64,000 nt of DNA, taken from a virus (taxonomy: Duplodnaviria; Heunggongvirae; Uroviricota; Caudoviricetes). The stretch is from the IMG/VR virus record IMGVR_UViG_651324002_000003, positions 19,934 to 83,933 of that record, one strand, 5' to 3'. Below the pieces are notes generated by a model. It was not told where the DNA came from, did not search any database, and saw only the letters and a program-made list of their open reading frames with translations. The position numbers were made by a program, and so were the translations under genes. This document shows positions 31,619 to 47,235 of the stretch, piece after piece; the stretch's first letter is position 1, and each line of letters begins with the position of its first letter.

Positions 31619-32353
31619 CTACTTGTTCAGGTTCAGCATCGGCAGCGTATTGCCACCCCAATAAGCCGGCAGCTTTCCATCCCACTTATTAATCGCCATT
31701 TCCTGTAATACCATCGGACTCAGGCTGGTATGCTTCGTCTTTTGAGCCTCAGCCTCCAGGGCAACCCGCTCCTTGTTATACCGTGCCGTTAAAACTCCCT
31801 GTTCTGCGATTTTCTTGGCTTCTACTGCATGATTATATTCGTCGCTGAAATCATGATTAGTAATCAAGAGATCCTTGACAACTAGACCGTTGCCAGTCGT
31901 TTTTTCAACAAATACTGCCTTAATCCTGGCGCTAATTTCTTGGCGCCGTTCCACAAATGATTCAATCGGATATTCCGCAACCATGGAGTTAACAGTTTCG
32001 GCCAACGTCGGCGACACCAAAATAGTCTGATATTCAGTGCCAAATCTTTGATAGATTGTTCCGATTTCACCGGGGTTCACGGCATAAACCAAACTCACAT
32101 CCACCTTAATTGTCTGCATGTCCTTACTAGATACCTCCAAGGACAGAGGAAAATTCTGTTCTCGGATGCTCATTTTCTTCACACTGTCGATAAACGGCAG
32201 TTTAAAGTTCAAGCCCTCGTCCATGATCCCATGTAACTTGCCCATGCGGGTTATTACCCCGCGTTCACCGGTTTCAATTGTTGTTATCATGCCGAATAAC
32301 AAAATGATGATTAAAAAGACCCCGCACACTCCCAAAATTAATGATTTTTTCAC
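31619..32353 (-). CDS. SPFH/band-7 (prohibitin/HflK-C-like) membrane protein
   Basis: N-terminal TM helix, then GERGVITRMGKLHG...GLNFKLPFIDSV and the characteristic PHB-domain layout. Confidence 0.75.
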   Translation of the reverse strand: MKKSLILGVCGVFLIIILLFGMITTIETGERGVITRMGKLHGIMDEGLNFKLPFIDSVKKMSIREQNFPLSLEVSSKDMQTIKVDVSLVYAVNPGEIGTIYQRFGTEYQTILVSPTLAETVNSMVAEYPIESFVERRQEISARIKAVFVEKTTGNGLVVKDLLITNHDFSDEYNHAVEAKKIAEQGVLTARYNKERVALEAEAQKTKHTSLSPMVLQEMAINKWDGKLPAYWGGNTLPMLNLNK

Positions 32354-32506
32354 AGTCCTATTTCCCCTCTCAATGAATAATTATTTTCTTTTATCACCAT
32401 ATATTGTGTCTAATGCAATTTTAAACCACAACATATGTCCGAAACCGGACATTTCCCGTATTTCCCAAAAAAATATCGCAGGAATGTTTCATCCTGCGAT
32501 TACCCG

Positions 32507-32665
32507 TTAATGCCAGCGGCTATTGATTTTGTACTTTTCGATCAACCTCCGAAGGTGCCGCTCTGTGACGCCGAGTTTAATCGCGGCCTGACTAATTCTC
32601 CTTGAGGCATTCAGTGCTTGGACAATGAGCTCTTTTCGTTCAATCTGTTGCGGTACTTGGTCCAT
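32507..32665 (-). CDS. small Fis-type HTH protein (about 52 aa, found by hand)
   Basis: MDQVPQQIERKELIVQALNASRRISQAAIKLGVTERHLRRLIEKYKINSRWH has a Fis/NtrC C-terminal HTH pattern. Weak RBS. Competes with track ORF 32640..32852. Confidence 0.3.
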   Translation of the reverse strand: MDQVPQQIERKELIVQALNASRRISQAAIKLGVTERHLRRLIEKYKINSRWH

Positions 32666-32754
32666 AATCAGTACCCCCCATTTGATACTTCCTCACTTTC
32701 CTTATGGTAATTAGTGGAGCCAGGAGCCGTATCCCGTGCCTAAGTGGGACACAG

Positions 32755-33123
32755 TCAGCCAAGTCCCATAATATCTGCTCCCTGGGAATAAACATGTATT
32801 GCATGCAATATATCCCCGATCGGCCGGCTTCGGTCCTGCCCTGCAGTAGCAATCATTTTCAGGTATATCTCGCATTTTTGTCGCTCGACCCCCTGAAAAA
32901 CATTCCGGAATGGTACTCCGCCTGATAGTGTCAGGGAATAATCCATCTTCTTTGTGCGGCCATCTCGCTTTTTTGGTAGTCCAGCATTTTTACGCCAAGT
33001 CGAAAATATCTTATGCGATACTCCTAATAACCGGGCCGCCGCCGTGTCATTGGGAGTATTGTGATACACTTGATACCGGGTAGCCTGGTCGCAATCGGCA
33101 AGATACTTAGTCATAGTCATCAC
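32755..33123 (-). CDS. HTH-containing hypothetical protein
   Basis: ARLLGVSHKIFSTWRKNAG HTH-like segment. Confidence 0.4.
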   Translation of the reverse strand: MMTMTKYLADCDQATRYQVYHNTPNDTAAARLLGVSHKIFSTWRKNAGLPKKRDGRTKKMDYSLTLSGGVPFRNVFQGVERQKCEIYLKMIATAGQDRSRPIGDILHAIHVYSQGADIMGLG

Positions 33124-33503
33124 CTACCATATCCTCGATCCTCCTTAAACTTATTGAACAGTTCAAATTCCTTATTCTTTTTCTTGTACTCTTCCAGTTC
33201 TCGTATGGCCTTTTGCGCCGCCGCTTCTGCTGCGTTTATTTCGTCTCGCATATCCCTCAATATCTTGATAACATATGGTTTTACATCTATTACCTTATCG
33301 TCAAAGGTAAGCTTCGCGTCATCCGCTTCTTCCCACAACCGGGGCAGTTCGGACCTCACAACGACCCTATAGTTTATTTCATATGGATATAACACTAACG
33401 CATCAATCAAATTGAATAGCGACAAGCAGCCTAATAACGGAAGGTGTCTTTTAAGATCGACATTTCTATACACTTTCTTCTCCCTTCTCCGGGTATTTCT
33501 CAC
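33120..33503 (-). CDS. hypothetical protein
   Basis: 127-aa ORF. Confidence 0.4.
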   Translation of the reverse strand: MRNTRRREKKVYRNVDLKRHLPLLGCLSLFNLIDALVLYPYEINYRVVVRSELPRLWEEADDAKLTFDDKVIDVKPYVIKILRDMRDEINAAEAAAQKAIRELEEYKKKNKEFELFNKFKEDRGYGR

Positions 33504-33696
33504 CGCAGAACGGGCAATAACTGACCATGACCTTGATTTTTTTATCTTTTAACTTACCATTTTCACCTATAACATCCGCTGTGGCTTCGATATAAATACG
33601 GTTCGACAAAAGTTCCACTGGCATAATAACTCTACGCGCCGTGGGAAATGCTTTTTTCAGCTCGGTACAAACTCTATTTTGGCAATCACACATCAC
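33466..33696 (-). CDS. zinc-ribbon small protein
   Basis: CDC...C and CPFCGEKY pairs. Confidence 0.4.
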   Translation of the reverse strand: MMCDCQNRVCTELKKAFPTARRVIMPVELLSNRIYIEATADVIGENGKLKDKKIKVMVSYCPFCGEKYPEKGEESV

Positions 33697-33910
33697 TGTC
33701 AGCCTCCTTTCTTATGCCCAGTTCAGTCAGGCAGACATGGCATATATTTAATGTTGTTCCGTTTATTTTGTTTTTGATGACATGGGTTCCCGGATGCTCC
33801 CCGCATAATTGGCATTTCCTCTGGCATTCTTTTTCTGACGGGCAATTAAACATGGACGTCCTCCTTCGGCAGCAGTTCGGCAAGTTCGCAGTCGGGCTTA
33901 TGCCCAGCAT
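33686..33910 (-). CDS. Cys-rich small protein
   Basis: More than 10 Cys in 74 aa (CC..C..C..C..C, C..C). Confidence 0.35.
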   Translation of the reverse strand: MLGISPTANLPNCCRRRTSMFNCPSEKECQRKCQLCGEHPGTHVIKNKINGTTLNICHVCLTELGIRKEADSDV

Positions 33911-34256
33911 CGCGTTCCCTCCTGCACACTAGGCAAACTCCATATATTTGACCGCAGCAAAATTGAATACGTTTCAGCATTCTTTCGCACCGTTCCAACC
34001 TTTCCATATCCTCCGGCCAGCCGGTCCACGCCCTGGCAATAAACTGGGCATTCGCTTTCGCTTCGTCAAATTGTTCGCCATCTTCGGGGTAAAGGTTATG
34101 ATCATAATTGATAATGTGCTGTGTTTCATAGCTTGCTCGACTTACTAAGGCTGTCCCCATTCGCAGCACATGGCCGTCTCCCTCCTGGTATTCGTACAGA
34201 CATTTTCCTGGAGTTTTGGCCGCCATAATCTCCTTTTCCCTGGCCCGGTCACGCAT
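33846..34256 (-). CDS. Cys-containing hypothetical protein
   Basis: CCGQIYGVCLVC and an HKPDC motif. Confidence 0.4.
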   Translation of the reverse strand: MRDRAREKEIMAAKTPGKCLYEYQEGDGHVLRMGTALVSRASYETQHIINYDHNLYPEDGEQFDEAKANAQFIARAWTGWPEDMERLERCERMLKRIQFCCGQIYGVCLVCRRERDAGHKPDCELAELLPKEDVHV

Positions 34257-34476
34257 CGTCTTTCACCGCCTCTAATGGATTTTTCCCGTTGATCCGCTCG
34301 TATTCGCGCATTGCTTCCGAAATACTCCCGCAATATCCCGACGATCTCAGGCAGGCAATGCACCGTATGTCGCCGCATCCGTCATCACCATGGATATATC
34401 GCATTGGTTCACCGCAGACACAAATAAACCCAGTCTTAGGCATCCTTACCGCCTCCCCCCAAGGTATTCTCTGCAT
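34249..34476 (-). CDS. Cys-rich small protein
   Basis: CVCG...C.C..C..C pattern. Confidence 0.35.
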   Translation of the reverse strand: MQRIPWGEAVRMPKTGFICVCGEPMRYIHGDDGCGDIRCIACLRSSGYCGSISEAMREYERINGKNPLEAVKDDA

Positions 34477-34846
34477 AGTCCGCTATCTGTTCGCAACGAT
34501 AATCCCGTGCTTCGTCGCTGTATTCGCAGGATTCATCCGCGTAATCAACGTCGCTGTATCTATACGGTTCGCAATCCGGGCGATTGCACCCATTACAAAC
34601 GTCAAGAGGTTTTGCTGTAGCGGCTTGGGCAATATCCCAGTATTCGCTGTCCTCTACGGCGACGAACCTATCATCGCGACAAAGGCAATACCCCCATGGA
34701 CTTCCGCAAAACTCCCCAACACTGCAATTCGCACAATGCTGATCCAATTCTCCTATTTTCATTTTGTTCCGTCGCCTCCCCTCTTCCTCGGCTTGTAAGT
34801 GCATTCGATGTGCCACATATCGCTTTGTCCAATTAAGTGAGGGCAT
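34436..34846 (-). CDS. Cys-rich hypothetical protein
   Basis: CANC, CLC, CNGCNRPDC, CEYSD... motifs. Confidence 0.4.
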   Translation of the reverse strand: MPSLNWTKRYVAHRMHLQAEEEGRRRNKMKIGELDQHCANCSVGEFCGSPWGYCLCRDDRFVAVEDSEYWDIAQAATAKPLDVCNGCNRPDCEPYRYSDVDYADESCEYSDEARDYRCEQIADYAENTLGGGGKDA

Positions 34847-34938
34847 TTGTCACATTTGGCTATATTTATTTCCCTTTTCTTTTTGGGGCACATGGCTAAC
34901 TGTATATACCGTGTTTCAAGCACCATCCTGACCGCCTC

Positions 34939-35154
34939 CTAATCATACCGATCGTTTTCGCCAAGTACCCAACGCAAAGCATCTTCGGTTGCTTGGCAGT
35001 CAATCAGCATGTCTTTTAGGACTTCTTGGGATATCTTCTTGTTCTGATACGATCTACGGCAATTTTGAGCGGCTCGTTGCGTAGCTTCGATTTCATCCCT
35101 TATTTCCCGCTCTGTTTTCACGACGCGCCTCCTAACAGTTCCGGGTTGTCCCAC
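34939..35154 (-). CDS. hypothetical protein
   Basis: 71-aa ORF. Confidence 0.35.
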   Translation of the reverse strand: MGQPGTVRRRVVKTEREIRDEIEATQRAAQNCRRSYQNKKISQEVLKDMLIDCQATEDALRWVLGENDRYD

Positions 35155-35519
35155 CTAGTGCCGATTTTTTCAAGTTTCTGCCCTAAGTCCGCTTTTGACG
35201 GGTCCCATTGCCATAGCGGGAAAGTCTGCCCTTGAGATAAGCGGTGTCCTTTTATAACCAGTCCGGCCCATTGGTGGCGGTCAGACCATATAATTTCAAC
35301 TATTGCTCCCGTTTCGTCCTTGCAGATATCGCCTCGGTAAAGATCTTGAAATCCGGTATACTGCCCGACCGTGGCCGGATCAACAGAATAAACCGTGTTT
35401 TCGTCACCGAACTGCATGATCGATATTACACCGAACATCTTAACTAAGTACCCAATTACCCACTTGCCGGTCGCTAAGCTTTTCCCCCGGAATTTTATCT
35501 CCCTACTCACCGGCTTCAC
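35118..35519 (-). CDS. YopX-family phage protein
   Basis: REIKFRGK...GKWVIGYL N-terminal signature of the YopX domain. Confidence 0.6.
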   Translation of the reverse strand: MKPVSREIKFRGKSLATGKWVIGYLVKMFGVISIMQFGDENTVYSVDPATVGQYTGFQDLYRGDICKDETGAIVEIIWSDRHQWAGLVIKGHRLSQGQTFPLWQWDPSKADLGQKLEKIGTRWDNPELLGGAS

Positions 35520-35775
35520 GCTCCTTCAATGCCTCGTATAGTAAAGTTAGAACAGAACCATCGCCCACATCGTTCCCGCGGTCTTCAAGCCATGGCTTGG
35601 CTGCCAATAATGCCGTCTCCAACTCCACAATTCGGGACTGCTGATCCTTGATGAAATCAACTATCTCCATTGCTCTGCGAATTGATATTGGCTTCACGCC
35701 TGCAACCGACGGATAAAACTCTATAAATTTGTCTCTGAGTATCTCTATCGCCTTCTCCGACGTCATCTTGTCCAT
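35503..35775 (-). CDS. hypothetical protein
   Basis: 90-aa ORF. Confidence 0.35.
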   Translation of the reverse strand: MDKMTSEKAIEILRDKFIEFYPSVAGVKPISIRRAMEIVDFIKDQQSRIVELETALLAAKPWLEDRGNDVGDGSVLTLLYEALKEREAGE

Positions 35776-36221
35776 CAGGATTCCTCCTTTTGCTTTTGAA
35801 ACTTTCTCGCCTGCAGTTCACGCTCTTTATTTCCCCATCTGGTAAGTTCTTCCGGTAAAATACCTCGACTGCAGTGTGGGCATATCGGTATCATCCCTGC
35901 CCGTAATTCCCGTTCGAATTCACGCGCTCGTATCAGCCATGGCTTGTATTCGGATAGTTCCTTGGCCTGTTCGAAAAGCTGTTTAAGCTCGCTATTCCTC
36001 CGTTCGTCCTGTTCGGCACACAGGAGCATCGCGTCAAACGCATCGATCTTATTTCCGCAATGCCGGCAGAATACTTCTCGGTTTTTTGGATCGAATTCAA
36101 ATGCAAGCGGCTTTTTGGGGAAGGTCATCCACTCATAGCAGGAGCAATGCTTTTCTTTCCCTCGATTGATGCGGAAAGTGGATAGTTGGACTATGTTTTC
36201 GGGTAATTTGTCACCCATCAT
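35775..36221 (-). CDS. zinc-ribbon hypothetical protein
   Basis: CRHCGNK...CPHCSRG pair. Confidence 0.4.
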   Translation of the reverse strand: MMGDKLPENIVQLSTFRINRGKEKHCSCYEWMTFPKKPLAFEFDPKNREVFCRHCGNKIDAFDAMLLCAEQDERRNSELKQLFEQAKELSEYKPWLIRAREFERELRAGMIPICPHCSRGILPEELTRWGNKERELQARKFQKQKEES

Positions 36222-36386
36222 GTTCCTCCTTCGCTTGTCTTTGTTTAATGGCTAGTGCCACCTCATGGCGTCTAATCATTTCGTTCAACATGCACTCCAT
36301 CATTCCAAGTCCCCAAAATTTAGCGACATCGTTTAACTGCTCTATCTGCTCTTTTGTCATCCATTCAGGGGCTTTGTAGCGCAGTT

Positions 36387-36827
36387 TCATGCTTCGCGCT
36401 CCTCTCGCTTCGGGGCGGAGAGGGCCACGCGGGACATTATGACAACGTTATACAACTCAGGACGATTAATCCAATCGTTCTTGTCGTCAACTTCAATCCA
36501 CGCAATTTCTTCCAGCGCCGCCGTCAGTTTCGCCACCCTGGCCTGGGCGGCGTCCCGCTCCTGCTCCAACCTTGCCTTTTCCTCGACGTGATTGTCAGCC
36601 ATAGTCTGGATAGTACCGCGCAACGAATCGCATTGCCGCCGCAGGCCAACACCCTCTTTTTTCAGCAACTCAACATCAATCATCAGCTTTCCGATCAACT
36701 CCCTGGCCCAACCGGGTATTCCTCGCAATCTGTCGTATATCCGGTCAAGGTTCGGATAGCCTGTTTTAGGCCGTGTAAGCAACTCTTCCAGAAGTGTTTT
36801 GTTTTCAATCATCCTCTTCCACCTCAT
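36387..36827 (-). CDS. coiled-coil hypothetical protein
   Basis: 146-aa ORF. Confidence 0.4.
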   Translation of the reverse strand: MRWKRMIENKTLLEELLTRPKTGYPNLDRIYDRLRGIPGWARELIGKLMIDVELLKKEGVGLRRQCDSLRGTIQTMADNHVEEKARLEQERDAAQARVAKLTAALEEIAWIEVDDKNDWINRPELYNVVIMSRVALSAPKREEREA

Positions 36828-36859
36828 TTAATGAGCATTGATATTCAACGCAGGTTGTT

Positions 36860-37093
36860 TCACTCATCGCCGCTTACCCCCAACGCCTGCACGCAAATCC
36901 GCTTGACGGCTGAATTTATCCGTGGGGATTTTTGTATGGATTTTATGGCAGTTTCTAGTGCTTCTATCCTATCACGTTGCCCCTCGATAATCACAAGGAG
37001 CGATTCATTACAATCTTCGCATACCGCGTCCATTAATCTACCAGTTTCTTTTGATCTGATTACAGCAAAGCCGCCATCATGTTTACAACTCAT
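36860..37093 (-). CDS. hypothetical protein
   Basis: 77-aa ORF. Confidence 0.35.
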   Translation of the reverse strand: MSCKHDGGFAVIRSKETGRLMDAVCEDCNESLLVIIEGQRDRIEALETAIKSIQKSPRINSAVKRICVQALGVSGDE

Positions 37094-37448
37094 CGCCGCT
37101 CACCCCTCCCTCGGCAATCAACCTGTCTATCTCGGCCGCAATCAGCGCCCCGGCCTTGGTCAATTCGCGAATCCGGTTGTCTGGGGTTGGTCGCCACCAT
37201 CTTATTTGCCAAGGCCACCAGATTATTATGCTTCCGCCAATTCTATCCGCAAAACGCTCTCTCAGCCTGGCCGGTATGGCATATGCTGCCGCAGCTAAAG
37301 CTAATTCGTCATAATCATGCCGCAGATTTGGAGCTATTTCCCTATTTCTTTCGGCAGCAATGAGTTGGATTCCGTCCGGTTTGTACGGTTTAAACGTATT
37401 TTCAAATCCCCTTTTACCTGGCATCTTCGTAATACCCCCTCGCCGCAT
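37083..37448 (-). CDS. hypothetical protein
   Basis: 121-aa ORF. Confidence 0.35.
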   Translation of the reverse strand: MRRGGITKMPGKRGFENTFKPYKPDGIQLIAAERNREIAPNLRHDYDELALAAAAYAIPARLRERFADRIGGSIIIWWPWQIRWWRPTPDNRIRELTKAGALIAAEIDRLIAEGGVSGDEL

Positions 37449-37788
37449 TCTTTTCGATCACCTTCCGCCTGACTTCCGCCCGGGCCTTATCGTCATACCC
37501 CAGGATTGCAAGTTCGGTTTCCCGGCTCATCTGACCGTCAACAAGTTCCATCGCATATTCCTCTTTCGATTTCGGGGAAGGATGTGCAAGGTACCATTCA
37601 AGCGCTTTTTTCTCTTCAAGGTTCTCACTCTGAACGTGCCCGATCTGCTGCAATAGCGTATTTCCCAGAAACCGCGTCGCCGGCCTGATCTCGGTTTCCC
37701 GGCGGTGCTTCAGTTCTTGTAACAACCTTTTCAATTCCAATCCATGCTCTGTCCCGGAGCAAGAATAAATATGCTCATCCAATGTCAT
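37414..37788 (-). CDS. hypothetical protein
   Basis: 124-aa ORF. Confidence 0.35.
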   Translation of the reverse strand: MTLDEHIYSCSGTEHGLELKRLLQELKHRRETEIRPATRFLGNTLLQQIGHVQSENLEEKKALEWYLAHPSPKSKEEYAMELVDGQMSRETELAILGYDDKARAEVRRKVIEKNAARGYYEDAR

Positions 37789-38300
37789 CTCGCCATCTCC
37801 CTACCCGACAATGTTGGCGGCTCCATCCATGCAAATACATTTTCGTCCACTTCAAGCAAAAGTTCAGTATCACCAAATAGATTCTGGATTTCATGCCACC
37901 CTTCCGGAATAAATTCGGGCGTGTAATCGTCTCCCTGCGCAAAATCTGACGCAAACATGGTCCCAAACCTTCCAATCTCTATTTCCTCAATGCCCGATGG
38001 TACATAAGCTGCGTACTTTAAGACGTATCTTTCCGGTTTTCCTACCGCGACAATAACCGGCTCCCCGCCTTCCGGCATTCTCTCTGTAACCGGTATCCAC
38101 CGCATGCGATCCCCTGCCATGGCCAGTTCAAGAAGTTCCCCCGCCGCCATAATCTGATCTTCGGTTCTGTTGTGATTGTCCACCCCGATACTGACGGTTA
38201 TTTCTCCCCGATTAAGCCTGTCTAATATGCTCATTTTCCCATCTCCTCCCCTCGTTCCAACTTGATCAGCCAGTCCCGGAAGTCTATCCGGGCGCCGCAA
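37785..38300 (-). CDS. hypothetical protein
   Basis: 171-aa ORF. Confidence 0.4.
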   Translation of the reverse strand: MRRPDRLPGLADQVGTRGGDGKMSILDRLNRGEITVSIGVDNHNRTEDQIMAAGELLELAMAGDRMRWIPVTERMPEGGEPVIVAVGKPERYVLKYAAYVPSGIEEIEIGRFGTMFASDFAQGDDYTPEFIPEGWHEIQNLFGDTELLLEVDENVFAWMEPPTLSGREMAR

Positions 38301-38437
38301 TCATTGCAAACAATCCTGACCTCGTATTGTTTCTTGCCACCCAAAGCGCAGATTTCAGCATCAGCCCCGCAGAAGGGGCATATGCTGTTTTCTTCTTTAA
38401 GGAGTTCTGCGCAGATGTTTTTCACTGTCAATTTCAT
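38231..38437 (-). CDS. zinc-ribbon small protein
   Basis: CPFCG...CNDCG. Confidence 0.35.
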   Translation of the reverse strand: MKLTVKNICAELLKEENSICPFCGADAEICALGGKKQYEVRIVCNDCGARIDFRDWLIKLERGEEMGK

Positions 38438-38441
38438 GCTT

Positions 38442-38678
38442 TTATCCCCTCCGCTTATTCAGCAGAATAACGTTTAAGACAACAACGGCTTTGCATTTTC
38501 CTTTTTGTGCTATCAAATCACTAATGCGTTCGATATCGCCGATTTCATTAATTTTAAAATTGGTATTGAAGGTTATTCTTCCAAAGCCGTTCCCTGTTTC
38601 TGTCTGGCAGGCATATGACACAAAGTATTTATACTCCGGCTTTCCAAATAGCTTTTTAATGGCCGTTATGATCGACAT
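38442..38678 (-). CDS. hypothetical protein
   Basis: 78-aa ORF. Confidence 0.35.
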   Translation of the reverse strand: MSIITAIKKLFGKPEYKYFVSYACQTETGNGFGRITFNTNFKINEIGDIERISDLIAQKGKCKAVVVLNVILLNKRRG

Positions 38679-40582
38679 AACAATCCCCTCTCTATCGCCG
38701 ACTCTTCATCCTGTTTCACCCAGATTTCTTGGTTAGAAAGCTCCCATTCCCAGCCAAGCTTACCGGCCATCCAGGCAACTAATATCTGATTTCCCATCGC
38801 CTGAGCCGCAGCCGGCGGAACTGCATTCCCGATTGCTTCTCGCCACCGAGCATCCGATTTACCGGCCAGTACCAGGGGTGAACCGTCTGGCATGGTCAGA
38901 GGTATGGACTGTAAAGCAGCCAGTTCAAGGGTAGTCAGCGGTCTGTGCCATGTCCCATCCTCAGCGATAATCACATACACACCGGATTCATTGTCCGCCG
39001 GGATTCTCGGATCGGCGACCGCCGCCGTTCCAGCGTGAACATCTGCAGAGCCTATTACTGTTTTTGCCGGTTCGTCCCATTGGGTTACGCCCATCGTACC
39101 GTTTCTGACGGTGCAACCAAAACGCGGGTCCGGGATTGATTGAGCACCAGCCTGTATGTCCTGTATTCCGGTTACCGTTGTTGCATGCTTATCCCACTCG
39201 CCAACCTGATATTTGTTGCTAAAGCCTTTTTCTCTGGTTATCCGTGGGTCTGATATTGAAGCCCTACTAGCCATGACTTGCATGTTGCCGCGAATCGTGA
39301 CACCAGACTCATCCCATTTTTGAACACCGTAGCTATCCGGATACATCTTACAATTAAACCGTGGGTCCGATATCGCCGGCGCCCCGCTACCGAATCTTGT
39401 TCCCGTCACACATGGTCCTGTTTCGTCAAACTTTACAACCCGGTAAACTGCCGGATGCTTCCCTTCGCATGCCTGCAGTCTTGGATCAGGAATAACCGTA
39501 GCACCGTTGTTCGGTCTAAACGCCCCAGTCACCGTATTGGCTGGCTCATCGTATCGGCTGACCCTGTAAATTGTTTTATGGGTACTATCCGCATTTAAAG
39601 TCATTCTCGGGTCTGGTATGGCGGCTGCCGTGCTTCCCCCGGGACGCATATTTCCGGTAACCGTTCCACTCGGCTCTTCCCAGTCCATAACTCCAAAAGT
39701 GCTTTTACGCGGTTCATGTTCAATACGGTACTGCTCCGGGTTTATGTTCTGCAGATCCCGCCAGTCGCCGCCAGCAGGAATAAGCGCTAGGCGTACCCAA
39801 GTTTTCCACTGCAACCGTGGCATCCGATGCATCGGGCCGGCGGCCGGATCATCAGGCAATGGCATGGGGCCAATTATATCGCCAACTGTTTTGAGCGGAA
39901 GTTTTGGCGGTTTATATACAAACGCCGGTACTTTATCAGGCTGTCTGGCAAGCAACAAAAATCTTTTTCTGCTCTGCCCCAGCCCTCCGATCTCGCCGCA
40001 GTCGTGGATTTCATTTTCTTTATGTACAATCTCATAACCGAACGATTTCAACATACGTCTGATTTCTTTCAGCAATTCCGCTCCTCTAGTCCGTATCCGT
40101 GGCACATTTTCAAAAATGATGATTCCCGGCAAGTTGAGCTCAAACGCTTTAAGAGTCAGATATATGCATCGCAACGTCAGGCGATTCAAAGCCTGATATT
40201 TTTTACTTTCAGCTGCTTTCCTCGGCAATAACCCTGAAAACCCTTTGCACGGTCCGGAAATAAATACGGTATCCGGGTATTCCCCACCGGTTGCCTCGTA
40301 TATATCATCAGGCGTCACTTCCCGCCAACCTTCAGGTGGTTCCTTTCCGTGAAAGTCAATATAATCTTGCCAGCTGAAGAAATCCATTCTGACTGCTGGT
40401 GCTCCAGTCATCATTTCAAAATCTTCGCAAGCCAGCGGATCAACGTCAAATCCTTTCAATGTCCGGAATCGACCGACAGCTCCTTTGTATTCTCCGATAG
40501 ATTTTTGCATCCCGAATGCTGCCATGCCTGCGCCACAACATAGATGAATTACCTTGTTTTCGTAAATTTGTGCCCTTAGCAA
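38666..40582 (-). CDS. DNA (cytosine-5)-methyltransferase with six tandem TRD-like repeats (putatively multispecific)
   Basis: Motif I LCCGAGMAAFG, motif IV GPCKGFS, motif VI ENVPRI, motif IX RPLTTLELAALQ, motif X IGNAVPP. Between VIII and IX there are six repeats of about 37 aa of the form W(D/E)E....TVTG..........(I/V).DPR. Confidence 0.85.
   Translation of the reverse strand: MLRAQIYENKVIHLCCGAGMAAFGMQKSIGEYKGAVGRFRTLKGFDVDPLACEDFEMMTGAPAVRMDFFSWQDYIDFHGKEPPEGWREVTPDDIYEATGGEYPDTVFISGPCKGFSGLLPRKAAESKKYQALNRLTLRCIYLTLKAFELNLPGIIIFENVPRIRTRGAELLKEIRRMLKSFGYEIVHKENEIHDCGEIGGLGQSRKRFLLLARQPDKVPAFVYKPPKLPLKTVGDIIGPMPLPDDPAAGPMHRMPRLQWKTWVRLALIPAGGDWRDLQNINPEQYRIEHEPRKSTFGVMDWEEPSGTVTGNMRPGGSTAAAIPDPRMTLNADSTHKTIYRVSRYDEPANTVTGAFRPNNGATVIPDPRLQACEGKHPAVYRVVKFDETGPCVTGTRFGSGAPAISDPRFNCKMYPDSYGVQKWDESGVTIRGNMQVMASRASISDPRITREKGFSNKYQVGEWDKHATTVTGIQDIQAGAQSIPDPRFGCTVRNGTMGVTQWDEPAKTVIGSADVHAGTAAVADPRIPADNESGVYVIIAEDGTWHRPLTTLELAALQSIPLTMPDGSPLVLAGKSDARWREAIGNAVPPAAAQAMGNQILVAWMAGKLGWEWELSNQEIWVKQDEESAIERGLLCRS
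39005..39721 (-). repeat. six tandem repeats of about 111 bp (about 37 aa) inside the C5-methyltransferase gene, encoding TRD-like modules
   Basis: Repeats read in the translation: ...VTGNMRPGGSTAAAIPDPR / VTGAFRPNNGATVIPDPR / VTGTRFGSGAPAISDPR / IRGNMQVMASRASISDPR / VTGIQDIQAGAQSIPDPR / VIGSADVHAGTAAVADPR. Confidence 0.7.
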
Positions 40583-40630
40583 TTACATCACTCCATTTTG
40601 TCATAATTTTTGTCATAGAAAGACCGGCAT

Positions 40631-40960
40631 TCAGTCCATTTGATAATATATGTGTACTTTCCAACCATCGCTTTCCATGCTCTTTGCCATGGCTTCAACA
40701 GCTTTCGCCCGGGAATTCCCCTGACCACCACCCGGTGGATAAATAAAGTATCCTGGGCCAAGCCAGTTGCTCTTTCCTCGGCAATGCAACCCAGCTGCTT
40801 TTATTGCCTCCAACACCTTGTCCTCTTTCGCTCTCGGAATGCGCAAAACCATGGTATCTCTATTGGCCGTTCCTCCATCGTCACTCCCTGATGTAGACGC
40901 TACTGCGGTGCTTTTGGCCCTTATTAAGTCATCAGTTAATTTTTTGTAATCCGTTGCCAC
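40631..40960 (-). CDS. hypothetical protein
   Basis: 109-aa ORF. Confidence 0.35.
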   Translation of the reverse strand: MATDYKKLTDDLIRAKSTAVASTSGSDDGGTANRDTMVLRIPRAKEDKVLEAIKAAGLHCRGKSNWLGPGYFIYPPGGGQGNSRAKAVEAMAKSMESDGWKVHIYYQMD

Positions 40961-40986
40961 ATTGCTTCCCCCTTTGTAGCATTTTT

Positions 40987-41262
40987 TTATCGAAATCTCT
41001 CTCCCGGATTCCAGTCTAATGGCTTTTCAATGCAGAATCTTTCTCTGAAATCCGGATAATGTTCTTCAACCAAAGCCCACAACATCTCTTCATTTTCAAT
41101 GTCGATTACAGCATAAATGGTGCAATCTTCACGGCCAGAATTATCATCACGAAGAACAATTTCATATTCTTCATATTCGGATATCCAGATCTTGAATGGT
41201 GGTTTAGTGCAGCCTTCATCAACATAATTTCCTGAATACCAGCTGGCCCAAAATCGTTTCAT
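40987..41262 (-). CDS. hypothetical protein
   Basis: 91-aa ORF. Confidence 0.35.
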   Translation of the reverse strand: MKRFWASWYSGNYVDEGCTKPPFKIWISEYEEYEIVLRDDNSGREDCTIYAVIDIENEEMLWALVEEHYPDFRERFCIEKPLDWNPGERFR

Positions 41263-41284
41263 GTCGGCCCACCACCCATTTCCT

Positions 41285-42208
41285 TCATTCGTAGCCCCCG
41301 ATCCAGTTCGTCGTGCATCCCCCGTCCCTGCCGAGGATAACGTTCCTATGCTTCTCTATGCACCATTCCTCAACTTTCGACCATGGTTGCCCGATAAGGT
41401 TATGACTACGATCAAAATAAACTGTGTGTTTTTCCATATAATCCGTAATGTATTGCTCAATTGCTTCTGCCTTCGGATTGTCCAACCAGAGTTTCAATTC
41501 GAACCTTCGTATAAGAGCCGGATCGAGTAGTTTTGGCATATTAGTGGCTCCGATAAGTACCGCACTGGCCGGTAGTCTATCAAGGCAAGTAAGCATCGTG
41601 TTAAGGGTTAGACTGTACTCCTTGCCAGTTCCGCTTACCGCCCCGCTTCTCGCCTTTCCAATGGCGTCCAACTCATCCAAAAACAGTACACAACGGTTGC
41701 CATATGCGTATTCAAAGATTGCATTGATATTTTTACTGGTAGAACCGAGATACGAATCAACTACGCCAGACAGTTTCAGAATATGTACCGGCAGGTTTAA
41801 TTCCTTCCCGATCACTCCCGCCAACGTTGTTTTTCCATTCCCCGGCGGACCGGCAAGCAGAATTCTATTACGGGTCAGCAGTCCTGCTTCTCTTAAATTT
41901 TCAGCGAAATCCCTTTCATTCATAAAATCATTTACTGCCGCCAGAACTTCGTCCACCAAAAACATCTGGGGCAAATCCTTCTGACACTCCGGTTGATACA
42001 ACATCGACTTAATATTCTGGGGGAGTTCAACCAATTTCGCATTATTGTCTCCCCACGACTTCAAAGCCTGTTCCAACTGTGCTACTGCCTTATCTCGACC
42101 ATTACTCTTCTCGTTGGCAATCATCGCTACTATTTGCCGTCTGGCATTAGAGTAGTCACGATCACCTATAGCCCGTATCAGCCAGTAAACATCATCAATC
42201 TTTGGCAT
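41285..42208 (-). CDS. AAA+ ATPase
   Basis: Walker A GPPGNGKT, Walker B VLFLDELD, and classic AAA spacing. Confidence 0.7.
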   Translation of the reverse strand: MPKIDDVYWLIRAIGDRDYSNARRQIVAMIANEKSNGRDKAVAQLEQALKSWGDNNAKLVELPQNIKSMLYQPECQKDLPQMFLVDEVLAAVNDFMNERDFAENLREAGLLTRNRILLAGPPGNGKTTLAGVIGKELNLPVHILKLSGVVDSYLGSTSKNINAIFEYAYGNRCVLFLDELDAIGKARSGAVSGTGKEYSLTLNTMLTCLDRLPASAVLIGATNMPKLLDPALIRRFELKLWLDNPKAEAIEQYITDYMEKHTVYFDRSHNLIGQPWSKVEEWCIEKHRNVILGRDGGCTTNWIGGYE

Positions 42209-42225
42209 GTTAGAACCTCCTCACC

Positions 42226-42654
42226 TTATTCCTCAACAAATCTGATATGCGGATACCGCTTCATAAACATCTTCTTTTTCATCATGTATACTGGGGTTCG
42301 ATACCCTTTGGTATCAATCACCGTCAGGGACCCGTCCAACTCATCTACCTCGAAGTCTGCAATATACGCAATGGCCCGGATTTTTTGGCGGCCGGCTTTA
42401 AACGCATCCTGAACGATATATTGCACCTGGATTCGAAAGTCCTGGATAATCCCGGCCCTCTTTTGAAGTTTCAACTCCTGGTACTTTGCCGCTTCCTTCT
42501 GACTGGCAAACACAATGCCGTCAACTTCAGTCTTTGTGGCGTTATACTTTTGTTTTTTCGGCGTTTTGTCGGCCGCCTTTAATTCCCTCAGCACACCATC
42601 AGGGATTCGCACACCAGCCTTAATCAAATCAGAAACGCTGTTGAATCTCGGCAT
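42226..42654 (-). CDS. phage protein, DUF1064-like (restriction-endonuclease-like fold suspected)
   Basis: 142-aa ORF with a conserved phage-family look. Assignment from memory only. Confidence 0.35.
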   Translation of the reverse strand: MPRFNSVSDLIKAGVRIPDGVLRELKAADKTPKKQKYNATKTEVDGIVFASQKEAAKYQELKLQKRAGIIQDFRIQVQYIVQDAFKAGRQKIRAIAYIADFEVDELDGSLTVIDTKGYRTPVYMMKKKMFMKRYPHIRFVEE

Positions 42655-42895
42655 TGTCTTTTAACCATTTTTCTCCGAGCGACGACAGGCTGTAATCACC
42701 TGTCGCTACTCTCTTTTGCAGGAGCCCCCGCCGATACAGAATATCCCTGATCATTTCAACCATCCGGCCAGGAGTCCGATCCAAAATCTTCTGAGCCTGG
42801 TCGGCTTGCACATGTCCAGTACTATGCATGACCAGTATGGCTTTGGCGATGACACTTTCTTTGTTCACGGAATCACGTCCCATCTCGCTAATCAA
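42629..42895 (-). CDS. hypothetical protein
   Basis: 88-aa ORF. Confidence 0.35.
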   Translation of the reverse strand: MISEMGRDSVNKESVIAKAILVMHSTGHVQADQAQKILDRTPGRMVEMIRDILYRRGLLQKRVATGDYSLSSLGEKWLKDNAEIQQRF

Positions 42896-43302
42896 AAAGG
42901 AATCTCCTCATCTGGAAATACGTCCTTACCGAATGAACTCATATCTACGGGCGCTGACCCGGCTTCTGGGGCACCTTGTTTCTTACTGTCCAAAAACTCA
43001 ATGTTTTGAGCAATAACCTCGGTTACATAGCGGCGCTGTTTTTCAGCCGTTTCATAGCTACGGACCTGCATCCGTCCTTCCACCAGCACCCGCCGGCCCT
43101 TGGTCAGATTATTACCGGCGACCTCGGCCAGCTTCGACCAGGCGACTACTGGTATGAAATCCGCCTCCCGTTTCTCCGGTGACGAACTTTGCCTATTTAC
43201 GGCTACAGTAAAAGACGCTACGGCTTTTCCGCTTTGTGTGTAACGGACTTCTGGATCTTTTGCCAAATGTCCAACGAGTATGACTTTATTAATTTTGTCC
43301 AC
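42892..43302 (-). CDS. ssb: single-stranded DNA-binding protein
   Basis: OB-fold pattern (ILVGHLAKDPEVRYTQSGKAVASFTVAVNR) and an acidic C-terminal tail ...DEEIPF. Confidence 0.85.
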   Translation of the reverse strand: MDKINKVILVGHLAKDPEVRYTQSGKAVASFTVAVNRQSSSPEKREADFIPVVAWSKLAEVAGNNLTKGRRVLVEGRMQVRSYETAEKQRRYVTEVIAQNIEFLDSKKQGAPEAGSAPVDMSSFGKDVFPDEEIPF

Positions 43303-44174
43303 TCCCCTTCATGTTCTTTTGCCACTGGAAACTTCGACCGCAATCCTAAATCACTGCAGTAAATGGCCGGTCTATACCAATATCGTTGAAATTTCTTCCA
43401 TTCCTCGCTGTACTCTATCCATTCTTTCGGCTGGTATAGTTGTGCACGAGGCAACATTCCGGCAAACGCTACCGATTTTAATCTGGCTTCGTTTTTCGCC
43501 ATATCATCGCCAATGAGCACATAGCAGTGCAAGTTGTCCCGTCTAAACCCAGCCTTTAGGAGATTAGCAGCAACTTTTTTTATCCCCGGCACCGAGCCGT
43601 CACAGTCCGCTGCAAACCATAGTTTATCAATCTTCAGCGACCGCATCTGTTCAATATCCCAATCGGTTAATCGAACTGCCTCCAGTCCGCCTTTAAACTC
43701 TATCCTGCTCTGTTTCTTGAGCATGTCGTATACTTTCGCCCGGTGCTCCTGAGAACACGCCAGAAAGTTATTGTCTTGAATGATATTCCCTTCAGTAATC
43801 GGCAGTTCGCGTAGTTTCCCCTCTCTCTTGGGAACAAAACAAAAACTGCAGTTATTCGGGCATCCTCGGGACGTGAATGTCATGCCCTTGCGGACATACA
43901 TTCCTGAAACAAAATCGCCGCCGGCATCGCCAAAGGCCGGCCCGCCAATCTTAACAGGTTTATCAGTAGCTCCCCCCCATTGGTACTGCAGTTCCTGGCA
44001 CCACTCTCTATCCCAGGTAAATACACAACAAACATGAACTTCATCATGGGCAGGAATAAACAACTCAGGAGGACCGAAAAAGCACATATCGTCATCCGGC
44101 GTATAACTATTCCGCCTGGGGAATACTCGAATAATTTTTGAATAGTCCATACTCATCACCACGCTTTTTGTCAC
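43218..44174 (-). CDS. radical SAM domain protein
   Basis: Canonical CxxxCxxC (GCPNNCSFC) about 100 aa from the N-terminus. 318 aa. Overlaps the next gene. Confidence 0.6.
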   Translation of the reverse strand: MTKSVVMSMDYSKIIRVFPRRNSYTPDDDMCFFGPPELFIPAHDEVHVCCVFTWDREWCQELQYQWGGATDKPVKIGGPAFGDAGGDFVSGMYVRKGMTFTSRGCPNNCSFCFVPKREGKLRELPITEGNIIQDNNFLACSQEHRAKVYDMLKKQSRIEFKGGLEAVRLTDWDIEQMRSLKIDKLWFAADCDGSVPGIKKVAANLLKAGFRRDNLHCYVLIGDDMAKNEARLKSVAFAGMLPRAQLYQPKEWIEYSEEWKKFQRYWYRPAIYCSDLGLRSKFPVAKEHEGEWTKLIKSYSLDIWQKIQKSVTHKAEKP

Positions 44175-44766
44175 TTTTCGGCCTTGGCAACGGGCAGTAT
44201 ATTGTCTGCTTGGCCGGCTTGCTGCCCCATACCGTCCAGTAAACCTCCATCAGGGGACTGCCCGACTTGCGTTCTTTTTGGTCAAAGAGAAAATTCGGGC
44301 GCCATGTAAGCGGTAGTACCGCTTCCGGCCTATATTGCTCAAAGATTTTCAGCTTACTGGTTGCATGCCAATACTGCGATTTTAATAAAAAGGCGAAAGG
44401 CTTGCCATGTTCAATGCTGCGGAGGATAAATTGCTCCGACAGCGAAAAAGGCGGGTTTGTTATAATCCAGTCACAGGGATTAAATGGCGATATCAGGAAG
44501 TCCATTCCGGTTCGACCATATCCCCTGTCACGGAGTTCGGTAGCTATTACAAATGGATATCCCTGGTGTTTTATGGTTTTAGCCATGTGCCCCTCTCCGC
44601 AGGCAGGCTCCCATATCCGAGTGTTGTACGGAAGTTTTAAATAGTTTAACAGGGCAATCGTTACCTCCGGTGGTGTAGGGTAAAAGTCGCTCGGACTTCT
44701 ATTTTCGTGGGTTCTATTCGCAAGTAGGTTGCCTTCCATCTTTTCCCCTCTCAATCTCGGCATCAA
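44107..44766 (-). CDS. adenine-specific DNA methyltransferase (gamma-class order, NPPF)
   Basis: DFYPTPPEV (motif X), EPACGEGH (motif I) and IITNPPFS (motif IV). Confidence 0.65.
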   Translation of the reverse strand: MMPRLRGEKMEGNLLANRTHENRSPSDFYPTPPEVTIALLNYLKLPYNTRIWEPACGEGHMAKTIKHQGYPFVIATELRDRGYGRTGMDFLISPFNPCDWIITNPPFSLSEQFILRSIEHGKPFAFLLKSQYWHATSKLKIFEQYRPEAVLPLTWRPNFLFDQKERKSGSPLMEVYWTVWGSKPAKQTIYCPLPRPKSDKKRGDEYGLFKNYSSIPQAE

Positions 44767-45220
44767 ATTTCATAAACGTCATCCAGTGTGTTTTGGTTCT
44801 CCGATCCCCGAATAGCGGCTTGTGTCCAATAGCCTGCAGAACTTCTTTCTGCGGGATTTGCTCCTCGTTCCATTTAAAGATTAACGTTCCGTTCGGCTTC
44901 AGCACCCGCATGCACTCGGAGAATCCGGTTTTAATATCGTCGCGCCAGTTCCCGGTTAACTTTCCGTACTTCTTGACCATCCAGCCCTTTTCTCCCCCCC
45001 TGATTAAATGGGGCGGATCAAATACGACAAGGTAAAAGCTATTGTCAGGGAACGGCAGGTTTCGAAAGTCGGCGATGATATCAGGCTTGACGATCAATTG
45101 CCGCCCATCGCAGAGCGTGTCGATCGTTTCCCGGTTATCTACATAGACCGTATGCGGTTCTGCCCGGTCGAACCAGAACATTCGCGATCCGCAGCATGCG
45201 TCAAGAATTTTCTTTTGCAC
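44714..45220 (-). CDS. small DNA methyltransferase (DPPH motif; N6-A or N4-C)
   Basis: LDACCGS SAM-binding motif and VVFDPPH catalytic motif. Confidence 0.55.
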   Translation of the reverse strand: MQKKILDACCGSRMFWFDRAEPHTVYVDNRETIDTLCDGRQLIVKPDIIADFRNLPFPDNSFYLVVFDPPHLIRGGEKGWMVKKYGKLTGNWRDDIKTGFSECMRVLKPNGTLIFKWNEEQIPQKEVLQAIGHKPLFGDRRTKTHWMTFMKFDAEIERGKDGRQPTCE

Positions 45221-45262
45221 GGTTTAACCTCTCAATCTCGGCTATCGCCGCAAATATCACCA

Positions 45263-46048
45263 TTACTCAAACATTACGGTCTGGTCTGGATTCTCTTTGC
45301 CTTTACCGTCCCGATCATATGCCCACCAATTAAACCAATCTTCGGCAGATTGCCAAGTCATGATTTCTCCCTTTGCGTCTTTCCGCTTTTTTAGGATATC
45401 CCATCCCATCTGAGTGGCCATTTTATAAGCTTCGTAAATTTTGGGCCACCGGGTTGCGTCTCTGGAGATATCGTGTTGCATCGGGCACATCACGCATCCC
45501 AATCTTTCAAACCCTTCGTCATATAGGCTACAATAAGGCAATTTTACTGACCGAATGTATTCCCAAATGTCATGGTAAGTCCAGTCTATGATAGGATGAA
45601 AATACCGCTTTGAGTTGTCCGTATAGCATTGTTCAACCATTGCGCGCCGTTTTCGCCTTGAACTTTCTTCCCACCTTACGCCAGTGATAACCAGTCTTCC
45701 CTTTCCGCCGCATTCTTTTAGTACAGCGCAACACCACCTGCGGTGTCTTAATGGCAAATCTCCTTTCCGGGCTATCAACTGCCACATTGTTTCTTTAGGT
45801 AAATGGCGCTCAACTTCCGGATGCTCCCGCCGGATAAACTGCACTAATTCAGGGGGATCAACGGTAGTCAGGTTGTAGTGGGCGTCATATTTCACGCCGG
45901 CGTGCTTCACGAGGTCAAGAGTCACACACGAATCCTTCCCGCCGCTAAACGCCACATAGTACCCTTCTGGCGGCTCAAACTGGCGTATCCGGTCAATTGC
46001 TATCTGCACTTTATCTCTGATTCCGAAAAGCGTATGTTCTACCAGCAT
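45263..46048 (-). CDS. PAPS-reductase-family PP-loop protein
   Basis: PP-loop VAFSGGKDS and a C-terminal Cys cluster (CSLYDEGFERLGCVMCP). Confidence 0.75.
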   Translation of the reverse strand: MLVEHTLFGIRDKVQIAIDRIRQFEPPEGYYVAFSGGKDSCVTLDLVKHAGVKYDAHYNLTTVDPPELVQFIRREHPEVERHLPKETMWQLIARKGDLPLRHRRWCCAVLKECGGKGRLVITGVRWEESSRRKRRAMVEQCYTDNSKRYFHPIIDWTYHDIWEYIRSVKLPYCSLYDEGFERLGCVMCPMQHDISRDATRWPKIYEAYKMATQMGWDILKKRKDAKGEIMTWQSAEDWFNWWAYDRDGKGKENPDQTVMFE

Positions 46049-46140
46049 CTCATCACCACTCCATCCTAAACGGTTTTTCAGGCGGCACCACCAGAATCTC
46101 CACGCTTCGCCGTCCCCACTCAGCCACTTTAGTATCTAAC

Positions 46141-46800
46141 TCAGTGTCGGCCTTGATATCTAAACTCACCGAAATACCTTCTTTCCGCTCTTTCTCTCGC
46201 CCAAACAGCATCGTCTTTATTTTTATAAACTCCCAAATTCATCTCCTCATGATTGACCGTAATCCTTGCTCTCCAAAGGTCTGGCCTATGACTACAACGG
46301 CTAACTCCTATCGCATTAGATGTATTGCAACTTCTTAATCCACGATTAAAGCTACTCTGCAGTGGAGTGCAGACCCTCAGATTGATTTTTCTATTATCAA
46401 GCTGGTCATGATTTACATGGTCCACATACAAATCATCCGGACTTTCCATGATAAACCTGTGCAGGTACGTTGTTTTCTTGTTAACCCTTGTTTTTGCATA
46501 TCCATTATCACTTAAATGCCATTTGTGTCTTGATACTCTCCCGACATCTTCGCAATCTATAACCGCGAAATCACGCACTATATGCTTAGTGTCTCGCAGT
46601 ACGATGATTGCAAAGATATCGCCGTATATAACTTCGTTCCTGTCAAATCTTGTGACAGTTAAAATCCTTCCGAATTTGCGCATGTGTGCTCTATGTTTCT
46701 CGCACAATAGCATATTGGTTGGTCTGTATACGCACACCCTGTTATTTTCTGTGCCACATACTTCGCATTTTCGTATAAATTTTTGCAATCTGTCATTCAC
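46141..46800 (-). CDS. HNH homing-endonuclease-like protein with an AP2 DNA-binding domain
   Basis: N-terminal CEVCG..C..H..H Zn/HNH and an internal HVNHDQLDNR HNH core. C-terminal RARITVNHEEMNLGVYKNKDDAVWARERAERRYFGEF matches an AP2 domain. Confidence 0.7.
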   Translation of the reverse strand: MNDRLQKFIRKCEVCGTENNRVCVYRPTNMLLCEKHRAHMRKFGRILTVTRFDRNEVIYGDIFAIIVLRDTKHIVRDFAVIDCEDVGRVSRHKWHLSDNGYAKTRVNKKTTYLHRFIMESPDDLYVDHVNHDQLDNRKINLRVCTPLQSSFNRGLRSCNTSNAIGVSRCSHRPDLWRARITVNHEEMNLGVYKNKDDAVWARERAERRYFGEFRYQGRH

Positions 46801-47235
46801 CTACCAATTCATCAAATAGGGCTTATCCGGTGGAATAACTAAGATTTCCAATGTCTTACGGCCCCATTGGATCATTTCTTCTTCTGTTTCTAGGCAAACA
46901 TCAATGATGTTCCCCTTAATCAAATTGCCGGTATCATGACAGAGCATGAATCCTATCCCCGGAACCCACACCCGACTCCCCAGAGGTATCACATCTGGGT
47001 CCACGGCTACCGTTTTATATGGGATCGCCGGTCGGCCGTCATATGCCAGTCCTGTGCCGCTGGTCATGCCGGGCTCAAAGGGCGTATAGGCGGTGGCCGT
47101 TACAGTCATGACATACCCTCGTGTCTCGGCAACCGAATTGTTTTTCATCCCTTCCAGTGCCGGGATTTTGCCAATTGCAATTGCCATCTGCTGCATGGCA
47201 AGCAGCATCATTACGACCATTGTCAGGACTTTCAT
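46801..47235 (-). CDS. secreted 3D-domain protein (MltA/YuiC-like cell-wall-binding/lytic domain)
   Basis: Signal peptide, then a TATAYTPFEPGMTSGTGLAYDGRP...VAVDP..IPLGS...PG 3D-domain pattern. Confidence 0.6.
   Translation of the reverse strand: MKVLTMVVMMLLAMQQMAIAIGKIPALEGMKNNSVAETRGYVMTVTATAYTPFEPGMTSGTGLAYDGRPAIPYKTVAVDPDVIPLGSRVWVPGIGFMLCHDTGNLIKGNIIDVCLETEEEMIQWGRKTLEILVIPPDKPYLMNW

Follow-up and report, generated by a model that had tools for sequence, protein, structure and literature searches.

A phage C5-cytosine DNA methyltransferase with six tandem modules resembling minimal target-recognition domains

We analysed 64,000 nucleotides (nt) of tailed-phage DNA (Caudoviricetes; IMG/VR record IMGVR_UViG_651324002_000003, positions 19,934 to 83,933), a stretch that we call the window and whose positions we number from its first letter. 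The window is phage or prophage sequence with nearly all of its genes on the minus strand. One of these genes is a complete open reading frame (ORF) of 638 amino acids (aa) predicted to encode a C5-cytosine DNA methyltransferase. Between its conserved motifs VIII and IX this protein carries six tandem modules, each of which looks like a minimal target-recognition domain (TRD). The parts of the gene are as follows, with the module types explained below.

38666..40582, minus strand: complete coding sequence of the C5-cytosine DNA methyltransferase and its six modules; 638 aa, TTG start, GGAG ribosome-binding site
39908..40582, minus strand: N-terminal catalytic part, aa 1-225, from homologue conservation and an AlphaFold predicted local distance difference test score (pLDDT) >90
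40511-40546, minus strand: motif I, HLCCGAGMAAFG, aa 13-24
40235-40261, minus strand: motif IV, GPCKGFS (PCK)
40097-40117, minus strand: motif VI, ENVPR, aa 158-162
39956-39982, minus strand: motif VIII, QSRKR, aa 203-207
39728..39907, minus strand: pre-array segment, aa 226-285, GPMHRxPRLQWKTWVRLALIPAGGDWRDL, from homologue conservation
39605..39727, minus strand: module 1, aa 286-326, type H (a first-position-only type)
39479..39604, minus strand: module 2, aa 327-368, type C (THxxIYRV...RPNNGA), present in 94 of 120 homologues
39359..39478, minus strand: module 3, aa 369-408, type B (GKHPxVYRV...PCVTGTRFGSGAP), present in 107 of 120 homologues
39242..39358, minus strand: module 4, aa 409-447, type E (MYPDSYGVQ...TIRGxxxxM), accessory
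39122..39241, minus strand: module 5, aa 448-487, type D (GFSNKYQV...DIQAGAQS), accessory
39005..39121, minus strand: module 6, aa 488-526, type A, the near-universal last module
38666..39004, minus strand: C-terminal part, aa 527-638 and stop codon, from homologue conservation and collinearity with M.HaeIII
38900-38950, minus strand: motif IX, RPLTTLELAALQ
38810-38836, minus strand: motif X, GNAVPP

The database gene call for this protein (P0001, 619 aa, 100% identical) begins at M20. We prefer the TTG start, which has the GGAG ribosome-binding site 8 nt 5' of it, because the residues N-terminal to M20 are kept across the methylase homologues and a start at M20 would cut motif I. The protein clears the Pfam PF00145 cut-off of 22 bits with a score of 51.2, and motifs I, IV, VI, VIII, IX and X are all there in canonical order, including each of those that an earlier note on this DNA, made from the sequence alone, had listed for a C5-cytosine methyltransferase (I, IV with PCK, VI with ENV, IX and X). 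Across 40 homologues, residues P111/C112/K113, E158/N159/V160, R205/R207 and G585/N586/V588/P589 are invariant. An AlphaFold2 model built from the query and 40 six-module homologues places the catalytic domain at pLDDT >90, and a Foldseek search with the confident part of the model matched DNMT1, MET1, M.HaeIII and M.HhaI (E ~1e-9). The pre-array segment (aa 226-285) is family-invariant and resembles the GSDWRDLPN segment of DNMT1. These motifs and the predicted fold identify the ORF as a member of the C5-cytosine DNA methyltransferase superfamily (PF00145), with predicted catalytic activity.

Not every feature of the core is typical, and it could be argued that the protein is no functional DNA methyltransferase in this phage, being instead an inactive allele or an enzyme that acts on another substrate or transfers another group. 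Motif I contains GAGMA where the family consensus, HLFxGIGGGALGF, has GIGGGA, and the third glycine of the S-adenosylmethionine-binding loop is thereby replaced by methionine (G20 to M). Motif IV reads PCK and not PCQ, the score against NCBIfam TIGR00675 (dcm) is 34.6 where the cut-off is 100.65, a value depressed by the long insert and by divergence, and a C5-carboxymethyltransferase structure (8yf3) is also among the fold matches of the catalytic part. However, the catalytic cysteine, the glutamate of ENV, the arginines of motif VIII and the GNxVP of motif X are invariant in the family, PCK is the family norm (64 of 70 members), the full-length ORF is intact behind a good ribosome-binding site, and the gene is conserved in >582 viral contigs. 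We give this reading only a very slim chance.

The six modules are 39-42 aa long and together fill aa 286-526 (nt 39005..39727), within the variable region that houses the target-recognition domain in all C5-cytosine methyltransferases and lies between motifs VIII and IX. They can be aligned over their full length on the pattern Y.V..WDxP..TVTG......GA..I.DPR, and each is closed by a DPR tripeptide (at aa 324, 366, 406, 445, 485 and 524). A module profile made from the homologues' modules only, with the query's own left out, gave six matches on the query of 44.6-55.7 bits (E 1e-16 to 1e-19), compared with a top score of 5 bits over 500 shuffles of the methylase protein; the six tandem repeats that the earlier note had described between motifs VIII and IX are thus borne out. 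All six retain the complete framework, and their pairwise identity is 26-41%. The same note had put the period at about 37 aa (111 nt), which our measurement corrects to 39-42 aa (117-126 nt). It had also seen a periodicity in the DNA at 39005..39721; this agrees with the extent of the array, but the signal is faint. Tandem Repeats Finder reported no repeat in the DNA, and at that level recurrence is limited to islands of ~20 nt at the (I/V)xDPR codons, spaced by 117, 237 and 246 nt. The module repeat is a protein-level feature.

What a module might do is suggested by its anatomy. In an analysis of 705 modules by column, the framework positions Y10, V12, W15, D16, P18, T21-G24, I35 and D37-R39 were conserved in all types, and columns 1-9/11/13 and 25-34 were highly variable between types and conserved within a type. 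The entropy of these type-specific segments within a type is far below that between types, even across distant hosts. A search of the PDB (177,635 distinct sequences) with the module profile returned as its top match the TRD core of M.HaeIII, RVRQWNEPAFTVQAS (residues 227-241, E=1.3), and a profile of the last module together with the C-terminus (motifs IX and X) was collinear with M.HaeIII 227-325 (E 0.14-0.3). Both alignments are marginal by E-value, yet no non-trivial match ranks higher and the two agree with each other; phmmer with module 6 and the C-terminus found no match in the PDB. M.HaeIII makes its contacts to the GGCC bases through S224, R225 and R227, and its specificity shifts on the substitution R243Q (PMC3526282). 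In the register of the profile match these four residues correspond to module columns 8, 9, 11 and 27, all inside the two type-specific segments. Because the specificity residues of M.HaeIII fall in type-specific segments around a conserved framework, each module looks like a minimal TRD composed of a conserved scaffold and two specificity loops. The earlier note had proposed a core resembling that of the TRDs in the Bacillus phage enzymes SPR, phi3T and rho11s: the TRD likeness stands, with M.HaeIII as the best PDB match, but the similarity to those phage enzymes is in register without being significant. A dimerisation or linker insert was also considered as the identity of the array and was rejected on account of the TRD-core match and the type-specific conservation.

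The window methylase has numerous relatives. There are >5219 in the databases and >582 loci in IMG/VR viral contigs, and in a library of 1.84 billion proteins 526 cluster representatives (clusters at 50% identity) match the module profile. A tblastn search found homologues with 38-44% identity in 42 cultured-phage records, among them those of the Pseudomonas phages phiCTX (orf41), LKA5 (gp10), H66, Dobby and PP9W and of the Sinorhizobium phage PBC5 (gp34). These cultured-phage members are annotated only as hypothetical protein (for instance, phiCTX orf41) or as DNA cytosine methyltransferase, with the repeat architecture unmentioned. Named homologues come from Sporomusaceae, Paenibacillus and Brevibacillus, and a scan of genome contigs with the methylase protein yielded one locus, from an uncultured Pelosinus sp. 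(60% identity). The hosts of the family range from Sporomusaceae and Bacilli to Pseudomonas and Sinorhizobium, and the host of the window phage is probably, with low confidence, a Firmicute or Negativicute, tentatively Sporomusaceae-like. The window methylase shares with the family members, to which it is 38-79% identical with the same architecture, motif IV PCK, the segment QWKTWVRLA...GxDWRxL, at least three DPR-ended modules of ~40 aa and a WHRP(L/F)TT motif IX. On these sequence traits we place it in an unnamed family of phiCTX-orf41-like multi-module C5-cytosine methyltransferases (PHROG 32684 / 116). We found no publication on this family (REBASE was not covered, and prior recognition there is possible), so it is apparently undescribed so far.

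Members of the family differ in the number of modules. The top 120 homologues have 3-9, with a mode of 6, and the viral contigs 3-8; phiCTX has 5, LKA5 6 and PBC5 8. Full-length members among the 526 cluster representatives reach 12 modules, the largest arrays (11-12 modules) being those of P0127 (1018 aa), P0121 (875 aa) and P0130 (857 aa), in which PCK, ENV and GNxV are intact. Each added module lengthens the protein by ~40 aa. Six modules, which the earlier note considered unusually many, are indeed many when compared with the 2-5 TRDs of characterised enzymes, but within the family six is the mode and the maximum is 12.

The modules cluster into discrete recurrent types. At least 16 were recognised among the 120 homologues, and in a set of 350 proteins ~110 types have three or more members. 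The first module is always of type F, G or H and the last nearly always of type A, B and C are near-universal, and the accessory types (D, E, I, J, K, L, M, N, O, P and more) are gained and lost, giving 94 distinct module architectures in 120 proteins. The query has the architecture HCBEDA, and relatives whose catalytic domains are 72-80% identical have HCBIEDA, HCBEA, HCBDA, HCBILA or HCBA; the type E cassette (module 4) is missing from close relatives such as P0014 and the type D cassette (module 5) from the close relative P0008. A similar exchange is seen between cultured phages. The phiCTX orf41 gene (locus L089, 2396-4174) and the LKA5 gp10 gene (locus L091, 1387-3297) encode near-identical proteins save that one cassette in the former is replaced by two in the latter, a replacement that is module-precise and bounded by ADPR (85% overall identity across the gapped alignment).

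Order and repetition are informative as well. B precedes C in 41 proteins and C precedes B in 41, and because module order is free we argue against a fixed composite fold. Only 3 of the 120 homologues contain a repeated type, compared with an expectation of 66 +/- 4 (minimum 54) from 2000 shuffles in which interior modules were exchanged among the 120 proteins, a procedure that ignores relatedness and so overstates their independence. Because types are non-redundant within a protein, we argue for selection for diverse functions within one enzyme. Taken together, the discrete types, whole-cassette swaps, free order and non-redundancy fit modules that behave as independent recognition cassettes, as far as sequence comparison can tell.

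The same arrays could also be read as composite. The modules would then jointly form one extended DNA-binding array that wraps around or tracks along DNA, and the enzyme would have a single target, long or degenerate, or a relaxed specificity, or would methylate processively. Such an assembly would explain the near-constant core set (a first-position type, C, B and A) and the finding that no member with fewer than three modules occurs in the sets examined. It would also suit the size of the modules, each being half as large as the small domain of a normal C5-cytosine methyltransferase, and the lack of an independent fold for single modules in AlphaFold. However, the free order of B and C and the 94 architectures in 120 proteins are hard to fit into a fixed tertiary assembly, module types are not repeated within a protein, and accessory modules are gained and lost between near-identical enzymes. 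Further, solenoid repeat proteins are usually predicted confidently by AlphaFold, and the window array is not. We judge a composite reader to be quite unlikely.

A third reading is that the array is partly decorative, with one or a few active TRDs, the rest being inactive pseudo-TRDs or spacers, and a total of 1-3 targets. Inactive pseudo-TRDs were reportedly described in some Bacillus phage enzymes by Lange and colleagues in 1991. The universal modules could be scaffolds, and some homologues, for instance P0013, have degenerate DPR ends. Against this, all six query modules have the full framework (45-56 bits), and within each type the type-specific segments show strong conservation even in distant hosts; because of this retained framework and within-type conservation, we argue that every common type is under purifying selection. 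A largely inactive array seems unlikely to us.

We infer with moderate confidence that the window ORF is an orphan phage-borne C5-cytosine methyltransferase that recognises several DNA targets. Inference extends to base recognition by each cassette, the number of active cassettes and the anti-restriction role, whereas the anatomy, the family membership, the cassette types with their shuffling and non-redundancy, and the phage context are observed. In the mechanism that we propose, one catalytic domain (motifs I-VIII and IX-X) would be joined to six different 40-residue target-recognition cassettes. Their framework, Y-x-V-x2-W-D-x-P-x2-T-V-T-G ... I-x-D-P-R, would be the counterpart of the TRD core in M.HaeIII-like single-specificity enzymes, and the bases would be read by the two cassette-specific segments flanking T-V-T-G. 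The cassettes would dock with the catalytic domain on DNA one at a time, and several unrelated short motifs, possibly up to six, would be methylated. Expression from the phage early/replication region would leave the progeny DNA pre-methylated and thereby shield it against several Type II-like restriction enzymes of the host simultaneously. As the family evolves, whole cassettes would be gained, lost and exchanged, probably through recombination at the conserved (A/S)DPR-coding junctions.

Besides the relatedness ignored in the shuffles, several points weigh against this interpretation. In sequence, the modules resemble known TRDs only marginally (E=1.3 for M.HaeIII and hhalign P=0.021 for the Bacillus phage TRDs). 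In the AlphaFold2 model of the query and 40 six-module homologues the array is not confidently predicted (pLDDT ~30), and in a four-module member (P0038, HCBA), modelled from a 120-sequence alignment picked for type-consistent module columns, the array had a pLDDT of 40-55 and no secondary structure. The docking of single cassettes accordingly has no structural support in these models; an array that folds only on DNA, or a limit of the method, may be the reason for the low pLDDT. The four near-universal module classes (the first-position types F/G/H, C, B and A) could be structural, as scaffolds or pseudo-TRDs, which would leave fewer real targets. Given its atypical motif I, the window allele is not guaranteed to be fully active. 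Finally, we found no methylation data or methylome of any family member in the literature (REBASE not covered).

Extending the proposal to the whole family gives a broader hypothesis, namely a widespread family of hyper-multispecific phage anti-restriction methyltransferases in which one core would be combined with 3-12 interchangeable, autonomous 40-residue readers drawn from about a hundred types and shuffled by recombination at DPR junctions. We put this forward tentatively, with a chance of being right that we place a little below even.

The surroundings of the gene are those of a phage. Other features of the window are listed here.

7861..9759, minus strand: tail-fibre-like protein, 632 aa, with collagen-like/tail-fibre repeat matches (50 PHROG families)
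9823-11034: major head protein
15362-17527: portal
19595-21007: terminase
37785..38300, minus strand: ORF of 171 aa with a DUF551 domain (23.2 bits, cut-off 22), overlapping the end of the Lar-like ORF
38231..38437, minus strand: zinc-ribbon ORF of 68 aa, two genes downstream of the methylase, with sub-threshold similarity to Lar
43218-44174, minus strand: radical-SAM-like gene
44107-45220, minus strand: two overlapping ORFs with weak class-I/adenine methyltransferase matches, possibly one frameshifted gene
45263-46048, minus strand: PAPS-reductase-domain gene
46141-46800, minus strand: HNH gene
54798..58543, minus strand: SbcC-like (850 aa) and SbcD-like (398 aa) nucleases, a pair that opens the replication/recombination block

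The replication/recombination block, which lies upstream of the methylase, encodes SbcCD-like and ParB-like proteins, a DnaC-like loader, a sliding clamp, a resolvase and an AAA ATPase. In relatives the gene sits in prophage replication modules beside genes for a clamp, DnaD, a DnaC-like protein and a single-stranded DNA-binding protein, and in cultured phages the homologues are found in early regions. No nuclease gene adjoins the methylase in the window, where its neighbours are small phage ORFs, or in relatives, and without such a neighbour we rejected a restriction-modification system. The zinc-ribbon ORF at 38231..38437 scores 26.1 bits against Pfam PF14354 (cut-off 28.6) and 27.5 against TIGR03655 (cut-off 39.6), and this Lar-like ORF and the methylase may form a small anti-restriction cluster. 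The DUF551 domain of the ORF that overlaps it is common in phage early regions.

Some further observations concern other parts of the window. In a prophage of Anaeroselena agilis (locus L088, 2269-11094) the homologous multi-module methylase is likewise flanked by Radical_SAM, SNF2+N6_N4_Mtase and PAPS_reduct genes, and the recurring radical-SAM/methyltransferase/PAPS-reductase neighbourhood may encode further DNA modification. The tail-fibre-like protein at 7861..9759 is a second internally repetitive phage protein. Over the window (1..64000) each 2-kb bin as far as about 62 kb has a negative GC skew, and the minus strand carries nearly all long ORFs; beyond ~61.4 kb the GC content falls to ~0.42 and the ORFs turn to the plus strand, a switch that may mark the phage edge or a lysogeny module.

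If the cassettes are autonomous, a single phage gene would neutralise many restriction systems, and this strategy would be common (>582 viral contigs, ~526 clusters at 50% identity). Cassette exchange would then be a fast evolutionary route in the arms race between phage and host, with phiCTX and LKA5 as a natural experiment. At ~40 aa the units would be among the smallest known modular readers of DNA sequence, with uses in the engineering of targeted methylation and in the annotation of 5-methylcytosine motifs in methylomes. If the broader hypothesis is true, no other known family of DNA-modifying enzymes would be as multispecific, and its cassettes would amount to a natural plug-and-play library of DNA sequence readers. 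In thousands of database entries the multi-module architecture is concealed behind the plain label DNA cytosine methyltransferase or hypothetical protein.

Among known proteins, the nearest counterparts are the homologues of phiCTX (orf41), LKA5 (gp10), H66, Dobby, PP9W and PBC5 (gp34), which share with the window enzyme 38-44% identity over the full length, the PCK motif and the same architecture, including a pre-array segment with SDWRSL. They differ from it in their Proteobacteria hosts and in their cassette types. M.HaeIII (PDB 1DCT/3UBT), a single-specificity enzyme for GGCC, has the same catalytic-domain fold, a TRD core that fits the module framework, and a C-terminus that is collinear with the window enzyme from module 6 through motifs IX and X. 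However, M.HaeIII has one such unit inside a larger folded small domain, whereas the window enzyme has six and AlphaFold predicts no folded small domain for them.

The multispecific enzymes of Bacillus phages hold multiple tandem TRDs that give multiple recognition sequences (PMC8936443). Like the window enzyme, M.SPRI, M.Phi3TI, M.Rho11sI and M.H2I are phage-borne orphan C5-cytosine methyltransferases in which one core carries tandem TRDs, there of ~40-50 aa, between motifs VIII and IX. Their TRD core has T-[LIV]-T after an aromatic residue, in register with the window modules, and in both groups the TRD sets vary between related phages. BLASTP of the enzyme core against M.SPRI found nothing better than E=3.9, no Bacillus phage record was among the tblastn matches of the methylase, and the module hidden Markov model run on the four Bacillus phage enzymes gave no significant match (E >=0.1). 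The alignment with SPR-family TRDs that the earlier note had suggested as a check did not bear out a relationship: hhalign of the module against Bacillus TRD profiles was in register on the T-[LIV]-T core and weak (P=0.021, probability 2%). We do not claim homology to the TRDs of SPR, phi3T, rho11s and H2, as neither the module model nor hhalign gave significant matches. Judged by these comparisons, the window enzyme is a parallel lineage and not a sequence relative of the Bacillus phage enzymes.

The TRDs of the SPR-type phage methyltransferases, studied by Wilke and colleagues in 1988 and by Trautner and colleagues in 1996, are said to be tandem units of ~38-51 aa that act independently. The M.phiBssHII enzyme of a Bacillus stearothermophilus prophage, described by Sethmann and colleagues in 1999, is reportedly a multispecific C5-cytosine methyltransferase with about five specificities and one TRD at a non-canonical N-terminal location, an example of an enzyme that can work with more than 3 TRDs. 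To our knowledge, multispecific methyltransferases, recognised since the 1980s, have been described from just a few Bacillus phages and have 2-5 recognition domains, and we are aware of no structure that accounts for the sharing of one catalytic domain by several small TRDs. What stands out here is the phiCTX-orf41-like family itself, with its combinatorial system of 3-12 cassette modules, which is widespread and includes cultured phages open to direct testing. Its members have PCK in motif IV where the Bacillus phage enzymes have PCQ, and they occur in phages of Firmicutes/Negativicutes and Proteobacteria, whereas the latter occur in SPbeta-like phages. Compared with the 2-4 TRDs of the Bacillus phage enzymes, the family has 3-12, with a larger vocabulary of cassettes and a regular unit that ends in DPR.

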